A DNA stretch of 64,000 nucleotides from an uncultured Pseudomonadales bacterium (GTDB taxonomy: Bacteria > Patescibacteriota > Microgenomatia > UBA1400 > Chazhemtobacteraceae), in assembly GCA_964618725.1 (NCBI GenBank), contig CAZUBK010000005.1, positions 11,569 through 75,568 of the forward strand. The letters are read 5' to 3'. Within the stretch, counting starts at the first letter, position 1, and each line of letters begins with the position of its first letter. Positions 4,062 to 54,707 of the stretch are shown one piece after another. A program made the position numbers and the translations under genes. The notes under the pieces were generated by a model that saw only the letters and a program-made list of their open reading frames with translations, was not told the origin of the DNA and did no database searches.

Positions 4062-6644
4062 TCAAGGAATCAAAGTAGGATTAGGCGTTGGAGTTGGAGT
4101 TGACACCACTGCTTCCTGATTAACACCAAAAGTGACAGTCGCTTCATTCTCAATCCCCGCTGAGTTTCTTGCCTTCACCTTTAATTCATAAACTCCATTT
4201 TCAAGAACAAAAGATCTCTCATAAGGCGGCGTGTCAAAGCGATGCTCTCTACTCCCATTCAGATATACGTCTACCCACTCAATTTTCTCGTTTGAGGCAA
4301 CTGACACTTTGATTTTAACTTCATTACCTTCGATCCTACTGCTACTAGTCGGTTCTTCTATTTTAATTCCAATGCTCTTGGTATCACCGCAATACTCCAT
4401 TGGTGGATGAAATTTGTCATCAGTCTGCTCCGACAACCATCGATCTATTGTTTTTTGCCACAAGTTATCCGCTGTCAATGGATCTTCCTCTCTCACATAG
4501 ATGTATTCGGCTCTATCAAAATTGTTTTCCGCAATCTGGACCTTATTTGCCAACTTAGTCGGATCTCCAGGACAAACCTCTATTTTGCGATGAATTGGAT
4601 CATCAGCCGTCGGCAACGTCCCTTTTACCACCCATTCCTTATAACTTGGAAAATCATCATGAGCCTGGTACCCCGAAACCAGATCCAAATCTACCTGTTC
4701 AACTCCACCAGGTTGCTCAAACTCCTGATCTCCAAAAGCCGTTATCACTTCAAGAATCTGACGTCGCCAGATAGGGGAAGCCCCCGACACTCCTGAAGCC
4801 ACCTGTTTCATCTGACTATTATCATTGTTTCCCACCCAGACCCCTACCACCATTTTTCTCGTCCAACCCACAGCCCAATTATCTCGTCTATCATTTGTCG
4901 TTCCCGTCTTCACCGCTACGTTACGCCCCGATAGATTAAGTAAACTATTTGGCCCGAATGTCAAAAGCCTCGCCTTATTGTCTGACAAAATCGAATTAAT
5001 CAAGAACGCCGATTGTTCACTCAAGATTCTCTTTTTACCCGATTGCTTATGTTCAAAAAGAGTCTTCCCGTTTTTATCCTCAACCCGCAAGATACTTACC
5101 GGTTCTACTTTAAACCCCGAATTTGCAAAACTCGCATAAGCCGACGTCATATCCAAAAGTCTCACCTCACCCCCTCCCAGAGTTAGCGACAAACCAATGC
5201 GTCTTAAGTTTTCGTTTGTCGGCTCTAGAGTGGTTAAACCCATCTCGTATGCCATCTTCAAAGTATCCCTGACCCCAACTAATGCCAGCAATTTTACCGC
5301 CGGAATGTTGAGTGAGCTACCCAAAGCTTCTCTTAAGTGTACCAATCCATGTTCTTTACCGTCATAGTTCTCTGGCACATAAAACGGCTTCTCTGGATCC
5401 CCAGTAGGAAACTCTGTTACCACATCGGCTATCACTCGTCCCGGCCACATACCCTTCTCAAATGCCGTCACATATGTTACCGGTTTTATTGACGACCCAG
5501 GTTGTCTGGAACTCAAAGCTACATTGACTTGACCATCTCCTTCTTTATCAAAAAAGTCTTTTGATCCAACCATACTCAAAATCTCTCCCGTTTCGACATC
5601 AATTATCACACTCGACCCATTTGTAATATGATGACTCTCAACCACTTTTTCTATTTCCTCAGCCACAATCTGTTGAGCTTTGTCTTGTAACTCCCAATCA
5701 ATAGAGGTTGTCACTTTAAGGCCCCCTCCTGCCACCAACTCCTCCCCATACATCTCGTTCAGCTTATCTCGCACATACATTACAAAATGAGGCGCTTTAA
5801 TCGTTGACCCAGCAGGTCTAAAGCTTGCTCCTGCCAATTCAGACAATACTTGTTTTTCCTGCACCGGAGTAATATATCCATCTTCCCGCATCCTCCTTGC
5901 CACATCTGTCGCTCTATTAACATAGGCCAACGGATCCTTGCCATACGGGCTATATCTACTTGGAGCTTGAGGCATACCGGCTAGAATGATTGACTCCGTT
6001 AAATTCAGTTCCTCTGGTTTCTTACTAAAGTATTGCTCGGCTGCCGAAGCAATTCCCCAGGCGGTACCACCATATGGCGCTTCATTCAAATACATTTGTA
6101 GGATCTCATCCTTGGTAAACTTTCTCTCAATCTGAACCGCCAGAACTAGTTCTTTTACCTTTCTCGAAAGACGTCTCTCGCTCGTCAACAAGACATTTTT
6201 CACCAGCTGCTGAGTTAAAGTTGACCCTCCAATTATTCTTTGCCTAAACACAACATTCTTCAATATCCTAAGAAAGGCTAATGGATCAAAACCTTGGTGT
6301 TTGTAGAAATCCTTATCCTCAATCGAAATAGTCGCTTGCTTAAGTGGAGCCGGAATCTGATCTAGTGGAGTAAATGTCCGATTCTCATCCTCATAGACAT
6401 CGAAAAGCACTGTCTCTCCAGTCCGATCAAGAATCTGAGTCGAAAATCCCTCCTTTCGTTGAATCGAATTAGGATCAGGCAAATCCCTGGAATACCAAAC
6501 GAAGGCAACTGTGGACAGAACGGTTCCCCCAAGCAATCCGAAAAAAACCAATTTCGCCAAGCTTGCCATGCTCAATCTTCCAAACACTCCCATTATTCCT
6601 GATCCTCTCCTTCTCTGCCGACCCAAACGTCCAAAACGACTCAT
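4062..6644 (-). CDS. class A penicillin-binding protein (transglycosylase/transpeptidase, PBP1A-like) with C-terminal extension
   Basis: The 860-aa ORF has an N-terminal TM anchor, GT51 motifs (QILDRTGE..., TLTQQLVKN), a transpeptidase S-x-x-K region and a beta-rich C-terminal tail. Confidence 0.8.
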   Translation of the reverse strand: MSRFGRLGRQRRRGSGIMGVFGRLSMASLAKLVFFGLLGGTVLSTVAFVWYSRDLPDPNSIQRKEGFSTQILDRTGETVLFDVYEDENRTFTPLDQIPAPLKQATISIEDKDFYKHQGFDPLAFLRILKNVVFRQRIIGGSTLTQQLVKNVLLTSERRLSRKVKELVLAVQIERKFTKDEILQMYLNEAPYGGTAWGIASAAEQYFSKKPEELNLTESIILAGMPQAPSRYSPYGKDPLAYVNRATDVARRMREDGYITPVQEKQVLSELAGASFRPAGSTIKAPHFVMYVRDKLNEMYGEELVAGGGLKVTTSIDWELQDKAQQIVAEEIEKVVESHHITNGSSVIIDVETGEILSMVGSKDFFDKEGDGQVNVALSSRQPGSSIKPVTYVTAFEKGMWPGRVIADVVTEFPTGDPEKPFYVPENYDGKEHGLVHLREALGSSLNIPAVKLLALVGVRDTLKMAYEMGLTTLEPTNENLRRIGLSLTLGGGEVRLLDMTSAYASFANSGFKVEPVSILRVEDKNGKTLFEHKQSGKKRILSEQSAFLINSILSDNKARLLTFGPNSLLNLSGRNVAVKTGTTNDRRDNWAVGWTRKMVVGVWVGNNDNSQMKQVASGVSGASPIWRRQILEVITAFGDQEFEQPGGVEQVDLDLVSGYQAHDDFPSYKEWVVKGTLPTADDPIHRKIEVCPGDPTKLANKVQIAENNFDRAEYIYVREEDPLTADNLWQKTIDRWLSEQTDDKFHPPMEYCGDTKSIGIKIEEPTSSSRIEGNEVKIKVSVASNEKIEWVDVYLNGSREHRFDTPPYERSFVLENGVYELKVKARNSAGIENEATVTFGVNQEAVVSTPTPTPNPTLIP

Positions 6645-19205: not shown

Positions 19206-19283
19206 TGCCTAAATATATCACCTATACATGAAAAAAGGAGGTTTCCCTCCTTTTTTCTACTTTCAATTCTCTTCTCCCAACCT

Positions 19284-30369: not shown

Positions 30370-30391
30370 TCTTAAGGCCTCAATGTGCTTG

Positions 30392-30420
30392 ACAGAATAA
30401 ATCCCATAAGATATAATTGG
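30392..30420 (+). promoter_or_regulatory. exact consensus sigma70 promoter TTGACA-17-TATAAT
   Basis: Read directly: ttgaca gaataaatcccataaga tataat, with AAGGAG and an ATG 30 nt downstream. Confidence 0.5.
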
Positions 30421-30451
30421 CTCAAATTGCACAACCACATAAGGAGACCGA

Positions 30452-30607
30452 ATGAGCGACCAACCTCAAGATCTTCCCGAGCTCTCATCAAAAACCCATC
30501 CATTTATGCACTACATCCGACATCGCCTCCCAGTCTGTCTTTATTTGTCTAGGAACATTATCTCCCGATTCCATGATTACCTTCAATTCACCATAGTTTT
30601 GTTGTAA
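30452..30607 (+). CDS. hypothetical 51-aa ORF, antisense to the 3' end of the convergent hypothetical gene
   Basis: AAGGAG sits 5 nt before ATG 30452. The ORF (MSDQPQDLPELSSKTHPFMHYIRHRLPVCLYLSRNIISRFHDYLQFTIVLL) follows the consensus promoter. Whether it is a protein or only an antisense RNA cannot be decided from sequence. Confidence 0.25.
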   Translation: MSDQPQDLPELSSKTHPFMHYIRHRLPVCLYLSRNIISRFHDYLQFTIVLL

Positions 30608-31429
30608 GTATCTTATTGTCATGTACAACATCGCTCTGGCTGGATCACTTAAGACAGAAGGTGTCTCTCCCTCTATCTCACCCAAACCTTCTTCAGCATC
30701 TAAAATGAATTCCTCCTCACCCTTATCTGAATAGACCACCACATTTTCAATCCACAACTCTATCGGCAATACCTCTCGCTCCTGGCTTTTCCAAATGAAT
30801 CCTTCAAGGATAGCTTCCTCTCCATCCGGCAGACTCAAATCGACGTAAACATATCCCGCCCCTTTTTCCATCCAGTCAGTTGGCAGATCAATATTGATCT
30901 TTAAACCACCTGCCAAATCAGCTTTTCCCGTATCATAGAACTGATCCATTTTGCTCTCACCCACACTCTTCTTTATATTCTCTATCTCTTTGTCTTCACC
31001 ATTAATTGGATCAGACCCGCCGATTATTATCTGTGAGTAACCCATTTCAAGGAGTAACCAAGCCGTCATATGAAGAGCATCCATGTGGTAATCCTCAGCC
31101 TTGACTCCTATCTTGGTATCTCGATATTTCCATTCTTGAACAAAATCTCCTTTTTCATCGTAAACCATGGCGTCTGTACCAGCCACATCACCTAGTTGAA
31201 TCCTCGCCGTAATTGCTCCAGTCTTGTCAACTGAGACAATCTCCACCATTGTTTTAAATCTCGACAACTCTCTCCCAGATCTTTCGTCTTTAAGGACCAA
31301 AACAAAATCAGAATCGACCACATGTTCTCGACATTTATACAAACCCTCCACTCTCATCCCGTCCCATTTTCCCGTCATGCAAGTCACATATCGTAAAATC
31401 CCTTCAGCTGTTCTTTCCCATTCTTTCAT
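30488..31429 (-). CDS. hypothetical cytoplasmic protein (313 aa), adjacent to integrase
   Basis: A long acidic ORF with no recognisable motifs. Confidence 0.5.
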   Translation of the reverse strand: MKEWERTAEGILRYVTCMTGKWDGMRVEGLYKCREHVVDSDFVLVLKDERSGRELSRFKTMVEIVSVDKTGAITARIQLGDVAGTDAMVYDEKGDFVQEWKYRDTKIGVKAEDYHMDALHMTAWLLLEMGYSQIIIGGSDPINGEDKEIENIKKSVGESKMDQFYDTGKADLAGGLKINIDLPTDWMEKGAGYVYVDLSLPDGEEAILEGFIWKSQEREVLPIELWIENVVVYSDKGEEEFILDAEEGLGEIEGETPSVLSDPARAMLYMTIRYLQQNYGELKVIMESGDNVPRQIKTDWEAMSDVVHKWMGF

Positions 31430-31665: not shown

Positions 31666-32670
31666 TCATCCATGGAACTTCTCATGAACTTTCTTTAGTT
31701 GCGGATTCGTCAAGTGCGTATACACCTGAGTTGTACTCACATTCTTATGCCCCAAAAACTCCTGTACCGAACGTAGATCGGCCCCATTTTGCAGTAACCC
31801 TGTGGCAAAAGAATGTCGTAATACGTGCGGACTGACTCGAATCGGTAGCCCAGCCCTTTTGGAATACTTGTTAACCAGATGCTGTACCGCCCTCACCGAC
31901 AATCTCATACTCTCTCCGCTCGTTACCACCCGATTACTCTCTCTCACCCGGTACTTGATCCACAAGGGTTTCCAGGTATCTTCTCGGCTGTCTAGATACC
32001 GCCTTAACCATTCCGCCGCCCGCTGACTCAAGAATACTACTCTAATCTTTCTTCCCTTCCCCACCACACTAAATTCCCTCGTTTTGAAATCAATGTCTTC
32101 CACATCTAGTTTAACCAACTCACTTACTCGAAGTCCCGTGCTAAACAATACCTCCAGAATGGCTTTATCTCTAAGCCCTTCTGGCTTAGAGATAATTGGC
32201 ATTGATAAAAGCCTCTCCACCTGTTCTCGACTCAAGAAACGGATCCTCCGACTCTCACCTTTTGGTAAATCTATTTTCTCGGCACTGAGTGTCTTTACTC
32301 CCTTTCTATTTAAGTACTTCAAAAATGCCCGAAGTGAGATAATGTAATAGCTTTGAGTTGTCCGTGACAATGTCTGACCTTTCTCGTCGGCAAAACGACT
32401 CAAAAACAACCTATATCCCCGAACCATCTCACTCGTTAGCCGCTGGATATACTCCTGACCATAGTTCTTCTCGAACCACCTACGGAACCTTCCTAAATAA
32501 AACCCATAGTTACGAATTGTATATTTAGAGTAGTTTTTCTCCACTTCAAGGAATGACAGATATCTCTTGATCAGCCTTTCCAAACTCAAATCCTCAATAT
32601 TTTTTTTAGTCACAAGCTCTTCTTTTTCCTGCCTCCCTAGCCAGGGTAGGGGAGAGAGACAAAAAAACAA
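31666..32670 (-). CDS. tyrosine site-specific recombinase/integrase (XerC/XerD-like)
   Basis: The C-terminal catalytic motifs are HVLRHSFATGLL...GHKNVSTTQVYTHL (R..H-x-x-R..Y) with an N-terminal SAM-like domain. The true start may be GTG at 32613, where a weak RBS is present. Confidence 0.85.
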   Translation of the reverse strand: MFFCLSPLPWLGRQEKEELVTKKNIEDLSLERLIKRYLSFLEVEKNYSKYTIRNYGFYLGRFRRWFEKNYGQEYIQRLTSEMVRGYRLFLSRFADEKGQTLSRTTQSYYIISLRAFLKYLNRKGVKTLSAEKIDLPKGESRRIRFLSREQVERLLSMPIISKPEGLRDKAILEVLFSTGLRVSELVKLDVEDIDFKTREFSVVGKGRKIRVVFLSQRAAEWLRRYLDSREDTWKPLWIKYRVRESNRVVTSGESMRLSVRAVQHLVNKYSKRAGLPIRVSPHVLRHSFATGLLQNGADLRSVQEFLGHKNVSTTQVYTHLTNPQLKKVHEKFHG

Positions 32671-32997
32671 AAAATCTAGTCTAATTATTATCTAATCTAC
32701 CTTCATACAATCACTAGTCCCAAAACATGTCAACTTTGTGCGACACACTCTTTGACTTTGGGTCTCTCTCTAAAAGGAAAACGACTTACTTGGGTATATT
32801 TCATGGTCAAGATCAAGACCCCACGATGCCCCTAGAAAGCTTTTTGAGCCATCTCAAGCTATGTTGGGGAGTCCTAAGAGATAAATCTGGGTACATCAAG
32901 CCAAAGGGGGAGTAACCACATCTTCGGGTTAATGTACAAAAGCCATCAGAAACAACAAGACAGGAAGATGCCCAAAGAAACGAAGAGAATACGTCGG

Positions 32998-33031
32998 CCC
33001 GAAAAGACCGAAAACTTTTCGGGTTTCTATT
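32998..33031 (+). terminator. intrinsic terminator-like hairpin (9-bp stem cccgaaaag/cttttcggg) followed by a T-run
   Basis: Read directly. No annotated plus-strand gene lies upstream. Confidence 0.45.
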
Positions 33032-33450
33032 CAACTCAACCGTGAACGATATCTAGTGGTCTTCTCCACCACCACGTATTTTGTATTGCGTACAATATCT
33101 CTTTTACGACATAAAAAGTATCATTCATCCCACCGGCCACGGTAGAGTAGGGCGCTTGTCTCTTAGCCATAAATATCAGATAGCTACTTAGACCTCGTTT
33201 TTCTCTTCCAAATTAATTAATTCATTTCTATACTCTAGGTCTTGAGACCATATCAATCAGTATCATTGTTTCATCTATCAAGAAGCATCTCTTCTCTCCC
33301 CTGGACAGATCTAGCTACATTTCCTCCTTTACAGCCTCGGTCCGGCCTCAATCAAACAGTGTCAATCACCCCAATGACCAATTTCGTGAAAACTTTGCCT
33401 TTTCTGTGAAAATTGCGCCACTTCTCTACTCTGGGTCATAGATCCTGCTC

Positions 33451-34312: not shown

Positions 34313-34837
34313 TCAAGCCAGATTAGTCCACACCTCAACTACATCATCCAGTTCGTCTAATTGATCAAGTAAAATCTCTACTTTTTCTTTACTCCCGTCA
34401 GGCAAGGTTATCCTAGGGATCGGCTGGATATGCTTAAGATAAGTTACCGAACCAGGACCCCCAATACTTCCACCCGCCTTCTCCATTAGGTTTCTCACAT
34501 CAGACCCCGTCCTATTTCGATTGTCTGTCACACAGGAAACTATCATCCCCACGCCAAATGGTCCATAGCCCTCGTAAGACACCTCCTCAAGCCTCCCCCC
34601 TTCCCCCTTACCTAGTCCCCTTTCTATCGCACGTCGCACATTGTCATTGGGCATATTCGCCTGCCTGGCCTTATCAACATACAATCGTAAACTAGGGTTA
34701 GAATTAGGGTCCCCATTCCCTCCTTGTTGAACTGCTATGGTTATCTGCTTCGCCAATTTAGTAAATACCTTTCCCTTCTTGGCATCAGTGATTGCTTTCT
34801 TGTGCTTAATTGTTGACCATTTGCTATGTCCCGACAT
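34313..34837 (-). CDS. YebC/PmpR-family transcriptional regulator (short form)
   Basis: MSGHSKWSTIKHKKA...VSCVTDNRNRTGSDVR matches the YebC N-terminal and central domains. At 174 aa it is shorter than the usual roughly 240. Confidence 0.8.
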   Translation of the reverse strand: MSGHSKWSTIKHKKAITDAKKGKVFTKLAKQITIAVQQGGNGDPNSNPSLRLYVDKARQANMPNDNVRRAIERGLGKGEGGRLEEVSYEGYGPFGVGMIVSCVTDNRNRTGSDVRNLMEKAGGSIGGPGSVTYLKHIQPIPRITLPDGSKEKVEILLDQLDELDDVVEVWTNLA

Positions 34838-35035
34838 GAAGTCATTGTACCACCAGGCATAAGTTTGGGCCGCGATACTCGCGGCCCAAAAATTACTTCA
34901 GGTGACTAACATACCCGGGGCGCTGCGCCCGCTCATAAAATCGCTTTGCCACCTTGCGGCGACGTGCCAGGTAGGCTTCCTGCCAACCCTTCTTCAAAAT
35001 AACCTTCACTTCACGCCTCCGTTGGGAAAGATTAA
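34838..35035 (-). promoter_or_regulatory. GC-rich 5' leader of yebC-family gene with two strong hairpins (gggcgc/gcgccc and gggccgcg/cgcggccc)
   Basis: The leader lies between a consensus promoter and the yebC start. Its local GC is far above the surroundings and it holds a perfect 8-bp GC stem. Confidence 0.4.
34893..35009 (-). CDS. possible 38-codon upstream ORF (leader peptide) rich in Arg/Lys
   Basis: GGAGG sits 6 nt before GTG 35009. The peptide is VKVILKKGWQEAYLARRRKVAKRFYERAQRPGYVSHLK. Its stop codon abuts the 8-bp GC hairpin. Confidence 0.2.
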   Translation of the reverse strand: MKVILKKGWQEAYLARRRKVAKRFYERAQRPGYVSHLK

Positions 35036-35041
35036 TATGAC

Positions 35042-35070
35042 CATAATAGCAGAAAAACAACTGTTTGTCA
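35042..35070 (-). promoter_or_regulatory. near-consensus sigma70 promoter TTGACA-17-TATTAT reading toward yebC
   Basis: Read directly from the reverse complement of 35042-35070. Confidence 0.5.
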
Positions 35071-35100
35071 AGACTATGGGTTTTGCTACTCTCCCTGCTC

Positions 35101-35129
35101 CTTGACTCTGGCTGTCACATACATTAAAT
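35101..35129 (+). promoter_or_regulatory. sigma70-like promoter TTGACT-17-TAAATT for the TPR gene (very short leader)
   Basis: Read directly. The ATG lies 11 nt after the -10. Confidence 0.35.
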
Positions 35130-35140
35130 TTGCCTAAGTT

Positions 35141-35848
35141 ATGAACCAAAGCCTTCCAGAGCTCAACCAAGCCGCCATCCATGCTTCCCTTACCCAACAA
35201 TGGGCCGCCGCAATTGATCTTAACCTTCACATAGTCCAATTAGATCCCACAAACATCTCTGCCCTTAACCGTCTTGCCAAAGCGTACGAAGAGACTGGCG
35301 AGATAGATAAAGCCCTTAAGTCGTACAACAAAGTTATCAAAATTGACAAGTACAACCGCATCGCCTTAAACAACATCGCTCGCCTTCAAAATCTTAAAAA
35401 ATCGCCCCACAAAGCCTCTTCCGGCCAATCATCTAACTTCAGCTTTATTGAAGAGCCTGGTAAAACCAAAACTGTCTTTTTAACTAAACTCGCTTCCAAC
35501 CAGACCCTCTCCAATCTACGCACTTCTCAACTGATTCACCTCAAAACCAGTAAACGTCGCATCAGTGCCTCCACCCAAGATGGGACCTTTGTTGGTTATC
35601 TGCCCGACGACCTATCCACTCACCTTACCCGTTTAATCAAACTCGGTAATGTCTACGAAGCCGCCATCAAAAACGCCACCAAAGAAGGCATTGAGATTTT
35701 TATCCGCGAAACCAAGAGAAGCAGTCGGCTCAAAGGCTTGCCCTCATTCTCCCTTAAAGATACACAAAAGTATTATCAGTTCCTCCCCACAGAACCCCTT
35801 TCTGAAGTCCCTTTGGAAATCATTGATAGCGAGTCAGAGTCTGTCTAA
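35141..35848 (+). CDS. TPR-repeat-containing hypothetical protein
   Basis: The N-terminal 100 aa have TPR-like helix pairs (ALNRLAKAYEETGEIDKALKSYNKVIKID). Confidence 0.45.
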   Translation: MNQSLPELNQAAIHASLTQQWAAAIDLNLHIVQLDPTNISALNRLAKAYEETGEIDKALKSYNKVIKIDKYNRIALNNIARLQNLKKSPHKASSGQSSNFSFIEEPGKTKTVFLTKLASNQTLSNLRTSQLIHLKTSKRRISASTQDGTFVGYLPDDLSTHLTRLIKLGNVYEAAIKNATKEGIEIFIRETKRSSRLKGLPSFSLKDTQKYYQFLPTEPLSEVPLEIIDSESESV

Positions 35849-41280: not shown

Positions 41281-41477
41281 ATCTGTTTCATATTTGTAAT
41301 CTGTGCCTGGAGTGGGAGTCGGACCCACATGGAGTTGCCCCCATAGGTTTTTGAGACCTACGCGTATACCAGTTCCGCCATCCAGGCATGCAGTTATTCT
41401 ACCACCTTCCCTTTTTACCCTCCTCATGATATTATAAGCTATAGTTCTTTGAACATGACAAGATTGGAGATCGTAAA

Positions 41478-54657: not shown

Positions 54658-54707
54658 ATCCCCCCGTTTGTCAAGCTATCGGCCACACTCTCCTCCTTTT
54701 CAAGGTA

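Follow-up and report, generated by a model that had tools for sequence, protein, structure and literature searches.

A candidate small-ORF transcription unit precedes a predicted leaderless yebC gene in a Patescibacteria-type genome

Upstream of the yebC gene in the 64-kb stretch of DNA analysed here (the window), a 233-nt minus-strand region had been taken in the original prediction for a cis-regulatory leader. With modest confidence, we favour a different reading, namely an independent small-ORF cassette that occupies a lineage-variable slot and is followed by a leaderless promoter of yebC itself, with the cassette promoter P1 probably reading through somewhat. The supposed leader would constitute a separate transcription unit, lying between the divergent promoter of a TPR gene and P2, the own promoter of yebC. 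In such a unit, a strong sigma-70-type P1 would initiate RNA near position 35036, a 27-nt 5' UTR would carry a GGAGG ribosome-binding site, a basic and lineage-specific ORF of 38 codons would probably be translated and a very stable stem-loop beginning 2 nt past its stop would close the unit, with yebC being transcribed mainly from P2 into an mRNA that would begin with the A of the start codon. A unit of the same kind appears to occupy this slot in the three nearest lineages, with a conserved P1, an SD-led start and a canonical terminator, and with unrelated ORFs. We infer both transcription starts, the translation of the ORF and the read-through from the sequence. As the hairpin is not a canonical terminator, the unit may stay transcriptionally joined to yebC in the window genome.

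The promoter P1 (35043-35077, minus strand) is composed of the upstream motif ATAGTC, the -35 hexamer TTGACA (35071-35066), a 17-nt spacer, a TGc extension with its TG at 35051-35050 and the -10 hexamer TATTAT (35048-35043), and hence the TTGACA-17-TATTAT promoter originally proposed on the minus strand is indeed present. In a consensus scan, P1 scored 11/12 with the TG extension, every other site between 33000 and 37000 reached 9/12 at most, and across the entire 64 kb no more than three, P1 among them, attain at least 11/12. Its hexamers, a spacing within 17 +/- 1 nt and its retention in relatives are those of a sigma-70-type promoter. As judged from a position and a quality that are conserved in the three nearest lineages, P1 is considered to be a real promoter. 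Its spacing predicts a start of transcription near A35036 and a 5' UTR of 27 nt (35010-35036, minus strand), in which GGAGG is located at 35020-35016, 6 nt before a GTG start codon. On the opposite strand, the divergent TPR-gene promoter TTGACT-17-TAAATT (35102-35130, plus strand; 9/12) precedes the TPR ATG at 35141. In alignment A1, its -35 hexamer (GTCAAG when read on the minus strand) does not vary, and compact relatives have it too; besides this promoter no antisense promoter was revealed in the region by the promoter scan. A GC content far above the average, also claimed for the leader, was borne out by a value of 0.567 for 34850-34999 as compared to the window mean of 0.443, which places this segment in the top 0.9% of 150-nt windows.

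The downstream gene (34313-34837, minus strand) encodes a YebC/TACO1-family protein of the short form with 174 aa (Pfam TACO1_YebC_N, 1.1e-31; Transcrip_reg, 1.2e-23). Its start codon, the ATG at 34837, can be considered fixed, because the N-terminus MSGHSKWSTIKHKK is the canonical one of YebC. The Pfam model for the second and third domains is matched only partly, and best over positions 1-52 of 160. A length of 173-197 aa is shared by nearly all of the 120 closest homologues listed, and hence the short YebC is conserved in the group and does not represent a truncation. Beyond regulation, YebC-family proteins have come to be described as translation factors that relieve stalls at proline-rich stretches (PMC12234827, PMC11990639). 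The peptide encoded upstream, which contains one Pro and no Pro-Pro, revealed no tie to this proline-related function. Immediately in front of the gene, P2 contains an extended -10 element, TGgTACAAT (34844-34852, minus strand), located 6 nt before the ATG and without a recognisable -35 hexamer. Irrespective of the upstream sequence, 11 of 12 lineages have a TAnAAT box 6-7 nt in front of the yebC ATG; among them are six with a TPR-yebC spacer of 39-100 bp and two in which another, co-directional gene is located upstream. A spacing of 6 nt would place the transcription start on the A of the ATG, and a yebC mRNA made from P2 is thus predicted to be leaderless.

A -10 element positioned for a transcript start at the start codon is the signature of a leaderless gene, for example in Mycobacterium, and leaderless mRNA promoters are known from Deinococcus too. 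The yebC gene exhibits this placement and has no SD sequence. Within the window, TAnnnT is located 5-8 nt before a start codon in 35 of 64 long ORFs as compared to 5.5% of all ATGs, the TG-extended subset accounts for 14 of 64 as compared to 1.1% of all ATGs, and GGAGG is found in the SD zone of a single one of the 64. Examples of the leaderless build are found at 6644, 14193, 17391, 19205, 24001, 34272, 34837, 43341, 44027 and 45344. Overall, leaderless genes seem to prevail and SDs to be scarce in the genome, the leaderless build being the dominant architecture of what resembles a Patescibacteria genome. Literature searches on leaderless translation in Patescibacteria/CPR found nothing specific. 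The promoters of leaderless mRNAs in Mycobacterium tuberculosis have been described by Cortes et al. 2013, as far as that work is reported via PMC12641261. As a separate feature of the window, the GC skew is very strong and uniform over the 64 kb whatever the gene orientation (-0.16 to -0.47 in 2-kb windows, plus strand), and GGAGG is distributed unequally, with 153 occurrences on the minus strand and 18 on the plus strand.

The small ORF (34893-35009, minus strand) starts with the GTG at 35009, ends with the TAA at 34895-34893 and, together with GGAGG 6 nt before its start, corresponds to the 38-codon frame of the original prediction. It would encode the very basic, Arg/Lys-rich peptide VKVILKKGWQEAYLARRRKVAKRFYERAQRPGYVSHLK (designated VKVILKKGWQEAYLAR... 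for short and recorded as P0001), which equals an NCBI-annotated 38-aa CDS. This peptide is an orphan. Only its self-match was recovered among 5.8 billion clustered proteins, no homologue besides itself was obtained when 1.84 billion representatives were scanned in full with HMMER, and comparisons with Pfam, NCBIfam and PDB sequences gave nothing significant, with the result that homologues elsewhere, as a conserved small-protein family would have, were not found in these collections. A second HMMER match (P0122) consists of seven tandem copies of VAPRFASRAQRPGY, with 14 residues matched and a repeat-inflated E-value, and was judged to be a chance match. Similarly, a PDB match to the nitroreductase 3gr3 over 20 residues (W.E.YL.RRRKV) had an E-value of 0.74 and received no support from the billion-scale searches. 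The likeness to ribosomal protein S21 that had been suggested for the peptide was not sustained, since no Pfam or NCBIfam match was obtained even at E = 10 and BLASTP against E. coli S21 aligned 12 residues in the wrong region with E = 3.8. The peptide also does not fit a type I toxin-antitoxin system, as it is basic and not hydrophobic.

For the window genome alone, the statistics do not set the 38-codon ORF apart from ORFs that arise by chance where the GC content is high. When the 303-nt intergenic region is shuffled, 47% of the shuffles contain an ORF of 38 codons or more, the codon score is equalled by 22% of spurious ORFs, and P(open) is 0.17 when the window is considered alone. GC3 amounts to 0.66 as compared to 0.45 in genes, and all six Arg codons are CGN, whereas genes use 49% AGR. 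GGAGG constitutes weaker evidence of translation here, because SD use is rare in the genome. An antisense ORF of 67 codons (34902-35105, plus strand) overlaps the small ORF and P1 in the same GC-rich stretch; it has neither promoter nor SD, is probably spurious and illustrates that open frames are cheap in such sequence. An alternative explanation accepts P1 as real and takes its product to be a short non-coding or functionless transcript, with the ORF as a by-product of the high GC content; selection would then act on the promoter activity, for example through effects of supercoiling or insulation on the divergent TPR and yebC promoters, or on a fast-evolving sRNA. The insignificance of the ORF when taken alone, the antisense frame over the same stretch, the atypical codon usage and the rarity of SD use are what such a transcript would lead one to expect, and the comparison with relatives given below bears on it from both sides.

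For the leader, two strong hairpins had been claimed, of which one is exceptional, whereas the remainder folds no better than shuffled sequence. The exceptional stem-loop, TTTGGGCCGCGA-GTA-TCGCGGCCCAAA (34864-34890, minus strand), is a perfect 12+3+12 palindrome with a folding energy of -22.1 kcal/mol (z = -5.4), and none of 200 shuffles was as good. The GC stem anticipated about 30 nt before the yebC ATG was recovered as this perfect 12-bp stem, the GC part of which ends 29 nt before the ATG, and the ORF does end at its foot, as the stem starts 2 nt past the stop codon. The 5' UTR together with the ORF (35036-34893) folds at z = +0.23, with 109 of 200 shuffles as good. The z-score of the whole leader, -2.05, is due solely to the terminal hairpin, whose stem is retained in both the MFE and the centroid structure of the full leader. 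As a terminator, this stem-loop is probably poor in the window genome. On either strand, a T-run precedes the stem and an A-run comes after it, and the hairpin is followed by AAACTTATG, so that the GC-rich hairpin of an intrinsic terminator is present and the directly adjoining 3' U-tract is not; the terminator scan did not report it at 34890-34864. T-runs are present at the hairpins at 19230, 54197 and 63534 of the window, which represent canonical and often bidirectional terminators. Because the hairpin has no U-tract, some transcription from P1 likely continues into yebC, which points to a partial read-through. At the same time, a stop codon located 2 nt from the stem means that a terminating ribosome, with its known footprint, would open the 5' arm too. 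With read-through and the opening of the 5' arm combined, a weak form of the leader reading survives, limited to the window genome.

The same palindrome might also serve as a DNA operator, bound by a dimeric regulator of P2 over its -35 region, which would be compatible with any of the other readings. Its symmetry is perfect, its centre is located at -40 and its span reaches from -53 to -27 relative to the yebC ATG and predicted start, P2 has no recognisable -35 hexamer, and the polarity of the T-run and the A-run is wrong for a terminator in either direction. However, relatives carry unrelated terminator hairpins at this place and no similar palindrome. Copies of the hairpin were found neither elsewhere in the window nor in viral contigs, its uniqueness in the window argues against a regulon and no regulator candidate is evident, and we therefore consider an operator to be most improbable.

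If the region were instead a cis-regulatory leader of yebC, P1 would be the main promoter of the gene and translation of the upstream ORF would control the hairpin, which would serve as an attenuator or riboswitch-like element, or as a site of pausing or processing. P1 transcripts probably do reach yebC past a hairpin without U-tract, the 5' arm would be melted by a ribosome terminating 2 nt away, and yebC could be translated from a long transcript, since operon-internal genes are evidently translated without SD. The searches for a known RNA nevertheless returned nothing that would support such a leader. With Rfam at gathering thresholds, tRNA-Leu at 41304-41387 was the only match in the whole window, a permissive scan of 34700-35200 yielded chance matches of 15.9 bits at most against cut-offs of 48-117, and no riboswitch, leader, sRNA or housekeeping-RNA family of Rfam reached its gathering threshold in the leader region. 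A structured cis-regulatory leader is further contradicted by the absence of excess folding outside the hairpin, by RNA structure and peptide that are both unconserved among relatives and by the fact that yebC has P2, the extended -10 of which is conserved 6-7 nt before the ATG. Attenuation by a leader peptide, which combines an intrinsic terminator with an antiterminator and leaves no promoter between leader and gene, is not what is found either. The U-tract is missing, no antiterminator pairing that competes with the -22 kcal/mol stem exists in the predicted ensemble, and P2, present in 11 of 12 lineages, separates the hairpin from yebC. In addition, six lineages with a spacer of 39-100 bp have no leader at all, and lineages that do carry the insert place a canonical terminator and the P2 box between ORF and yebC. 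A regulatory leader of yebC is thus regarded as very unlikely. Taken together, what remains of the original prediction is the promoter and an SD-led ORF that ends at a hairpin, as observed in four lineages, whereas the RNA family, the structure, the S21 likeness and the leader role are not supported.

Relatives were gathered via the YebC protein, by protein search and contig look-ups. In a species-level genome collection scanned with YebC, the best among the matches listed is a Collierbacteria MAG with 55% identity, and a metagenome scan with the TPR protein recovered distant relatives only. The gene order TPR - yebC - DUF5656 - integrase is kept in relatives, and an insert between TPR and yebC is found only in the window and its three nearest lineages, which share at least 75% YebC identity (84% for L085/L086, 79% for L087 and 75% for L088/L089). 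In six compact lineages, yebC is located 39-100 bp from the TPR gene and the leader is absent. Flanking direct repeats or other signs of a mobile element were not found around the insert. The flanking coding DNA of the three nearest lineages shows about 65-70% identity to that of the window, and when the insert was compared with the relatives by blastn, no alignment was obtained inside 35119-34838. In a MAFFT alignment, CTTGAC is invariant, with a good -10 element 17 nt downstream in L085, L087 and L088, and the sites equivalent to P1 score 11/12, 10/12 and 10/12, respectively. A CCyATAG motif immediately 5' of the -35 is common to the insert lineages, and the region of the transcription start is alike. 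An SD-like motif is present 6-8 nt before a start codon in all three, at about the same distance from P1, and opens ORFs of 89, 59 and 47 codons in L085, L087 and L088, respectively. These ORFs end 5-14 nt before a hairpin, which in the three relatives is a canonical terminator with a T-run, located between the small ORF and P2, the box of which follows the hairpin. For all four ORFs to remain open between an SD-led start and the hairpin, the joint chance amounts to about 2e-5.

Among the four slot ORFs, compared as annotated and in all forward frames, no significant homology was detected (pairwise p > 0.08), and those of the relatives belong to no Pfam or NCBIfam family. The 89-aa ORF of L085, searched alone, is an orphan as well and contains clear transmembrane-like segments. 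The inserts of the relatives fold with z-scores of -1.4, +1.7 and -1.3, and, apart from its terminal hairpin, neither the excess folding nor the conserved or covarying structure of a generic structured cis-RNA was found in the leader. Hence the absence of conserved structure or ORF, named in the original prediction as what would refute it, applies to sequence and structure, whereas some ORF is always present. With regard to a non-coding or functionless P1 transcript, the orphan status of both the peptide and the L085 ORF and the promoter as the sole conserved part fit such a product. It is less readily reconciled with four lineages in which an SD-like motif and an ORF fill the space up to the hairpin at the above joint chance, with the transmembrane-like segments in L085, with the lack of the excess folding that a structured sRNA would show and with an identically built cassette at 54674 that encodes an obvious secreted protein. 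We therefore hold this explanation to be possible but unlikely.

Beyond yebC, between the DUF5656 and recombinase genes, a gap of about 780 nt (32671-33450) contains no credible ORFs, and no or few genes are called in the corresponding gaps of 845-1617 nt in all relatives examined. A dif-like core, ATGTCGTAAAA GAGATA TTGTACGCAAT (33112-33085, minus strand), precedes the tyrosine-recombinase gene (31666-32670) by about 400 nt and consists of 11-bp inverted arms with a 6-bp spacer. It is conserved in L088, L090, L092 and L093, and its arms change together (GTCGTA/TACGAC vs GTCGCA/TGCGAC). A single half-site, GTCGCACAAAGTTGAC (32744-32729, minus strand), overlaps a TTGACA that is found immediately 5' of the recombinase gene. 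As the GC skew keeps its sign at the dif-like site, this site may not mark the chromosome terminus. Other short conserved blocks of the gap are AAACCCGAA, which occurs twice, and GAAAGCyTTyTAGrGGCAT. Rfam gave no match on 32671-33450, and the gap may hold a non-coding RNA or a cluster of regulatory sites.

The small-ORF cassette read from P1 has counterparts in the window. When the 64 kb were scanned for ORFs that have an SD before their start and a promoter upstream, exactly three units were obtained, which have in common TTGACA-17-TAnnnT, a distance of 33-34 nt between the -10 and the start codon and an SD located 6-8 nt ahead of the latter. Besides the unit with its -35 at 35071 (minus strand) and the 38-codon ORF, these are a cassette at 54674-54197 (minus strand, -35 at 54674), which encodes a 126-aa orphan protein with a signal peptide and ends with a canonical terminator, and one at 30389-30607 (plus strand, -35 at 30389) with a 51-codon ORF that extends, in antisense orientation, into the 3' end of a 313-aa gene (30488-31429). 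In the cassettes at 30389 and 54674 the SD is AAGGAG(G). P1 and the cassette at 54674 share ATAG(N)CTTGACAAAC, and ATAG(N0-2)CTTGAC occurs in the window at these two places only, as compared to 0.21 expected by chance. None of the three cassette ORFs has a Pfam family. As far as their build goes, P1 and its ORF seem to be one of a few units for orphan genes that have a leader and use an SD, in a genome that is leaderless otherwise.

A bolder extension, distinctly unlikely in our estimation, would have the slot be a conserved expression socket, in which promoter, start region, SD-led start and 3' hairpin are kept and the ORF is a different orphan each time. If that were true, the slot could be a place in which small proteins arise de novo or evolve very fast within a reduced genome of the Patescibacteria type or, alternatively, the transcription and translation of any sequence there could be what is selected, for example for tuning the neighbouring leaderless promoters, and the three SD-led cassettes would represent a separate expression class for accessory orphan genes. 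If the cassette reading is right, the region contains no new riboswitch or attenuator, yebC is a simple leaderless gene and an attractive wrong annotation is corrected. In evolutionary terms, a promoter and a translation start would be conserved across deep divergence, with the ORF driven by them replaced or no longer recognisable in every case. Two systems also seem to coexist in the genome, with core genes being leaderless and preceded by an extended -10, and a few orphans using a full-consensus promoter and an SD, which is of interest as the rules of promoter use and translation initiation are poorly known in Patescibacteria.

Compared with known systems, the peptide of the small ORF resembles bS21 in being short and Arg/Lys-rich and in having an RFYE string, but differs in matching neither the S21 profile nor its sequence significantly. 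Like the trp, his and pheA attenuators, the region has a short ORF that ends beside a strong hairpin upstream of a structural gene. Unlike in those systems, there is no U-tract, no antiterminator pairing and no run of regulatory codons related to what the downstream gene does, peptide and structure are not conserved, and a conserved promoter is placed between the hairpin and yebC. With the leaderless promoters of Mycobacterium tuberculosis and Deinococcus, yebC has in common a -10 that ends 6-7 nt before the start, the absence of SD and the genome-wide spread of this arrangement, whereas the predicted promoters of the window are often TGn-extended and have no -35 hexamer. The remaining comparison is with an ordinary small-protein gene composed of a sigma-70 promoter, an SD, a small ORF and a 3' stem-loop. 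From such a gene the unit departs in that its ORF is an orphan with atypical codons, its stem-loop lacks the U-tract and the ORF in the slot differs in every related lineage, yet it contains all four parts in canonical geometry, and two other cassettes of the window are built alike.
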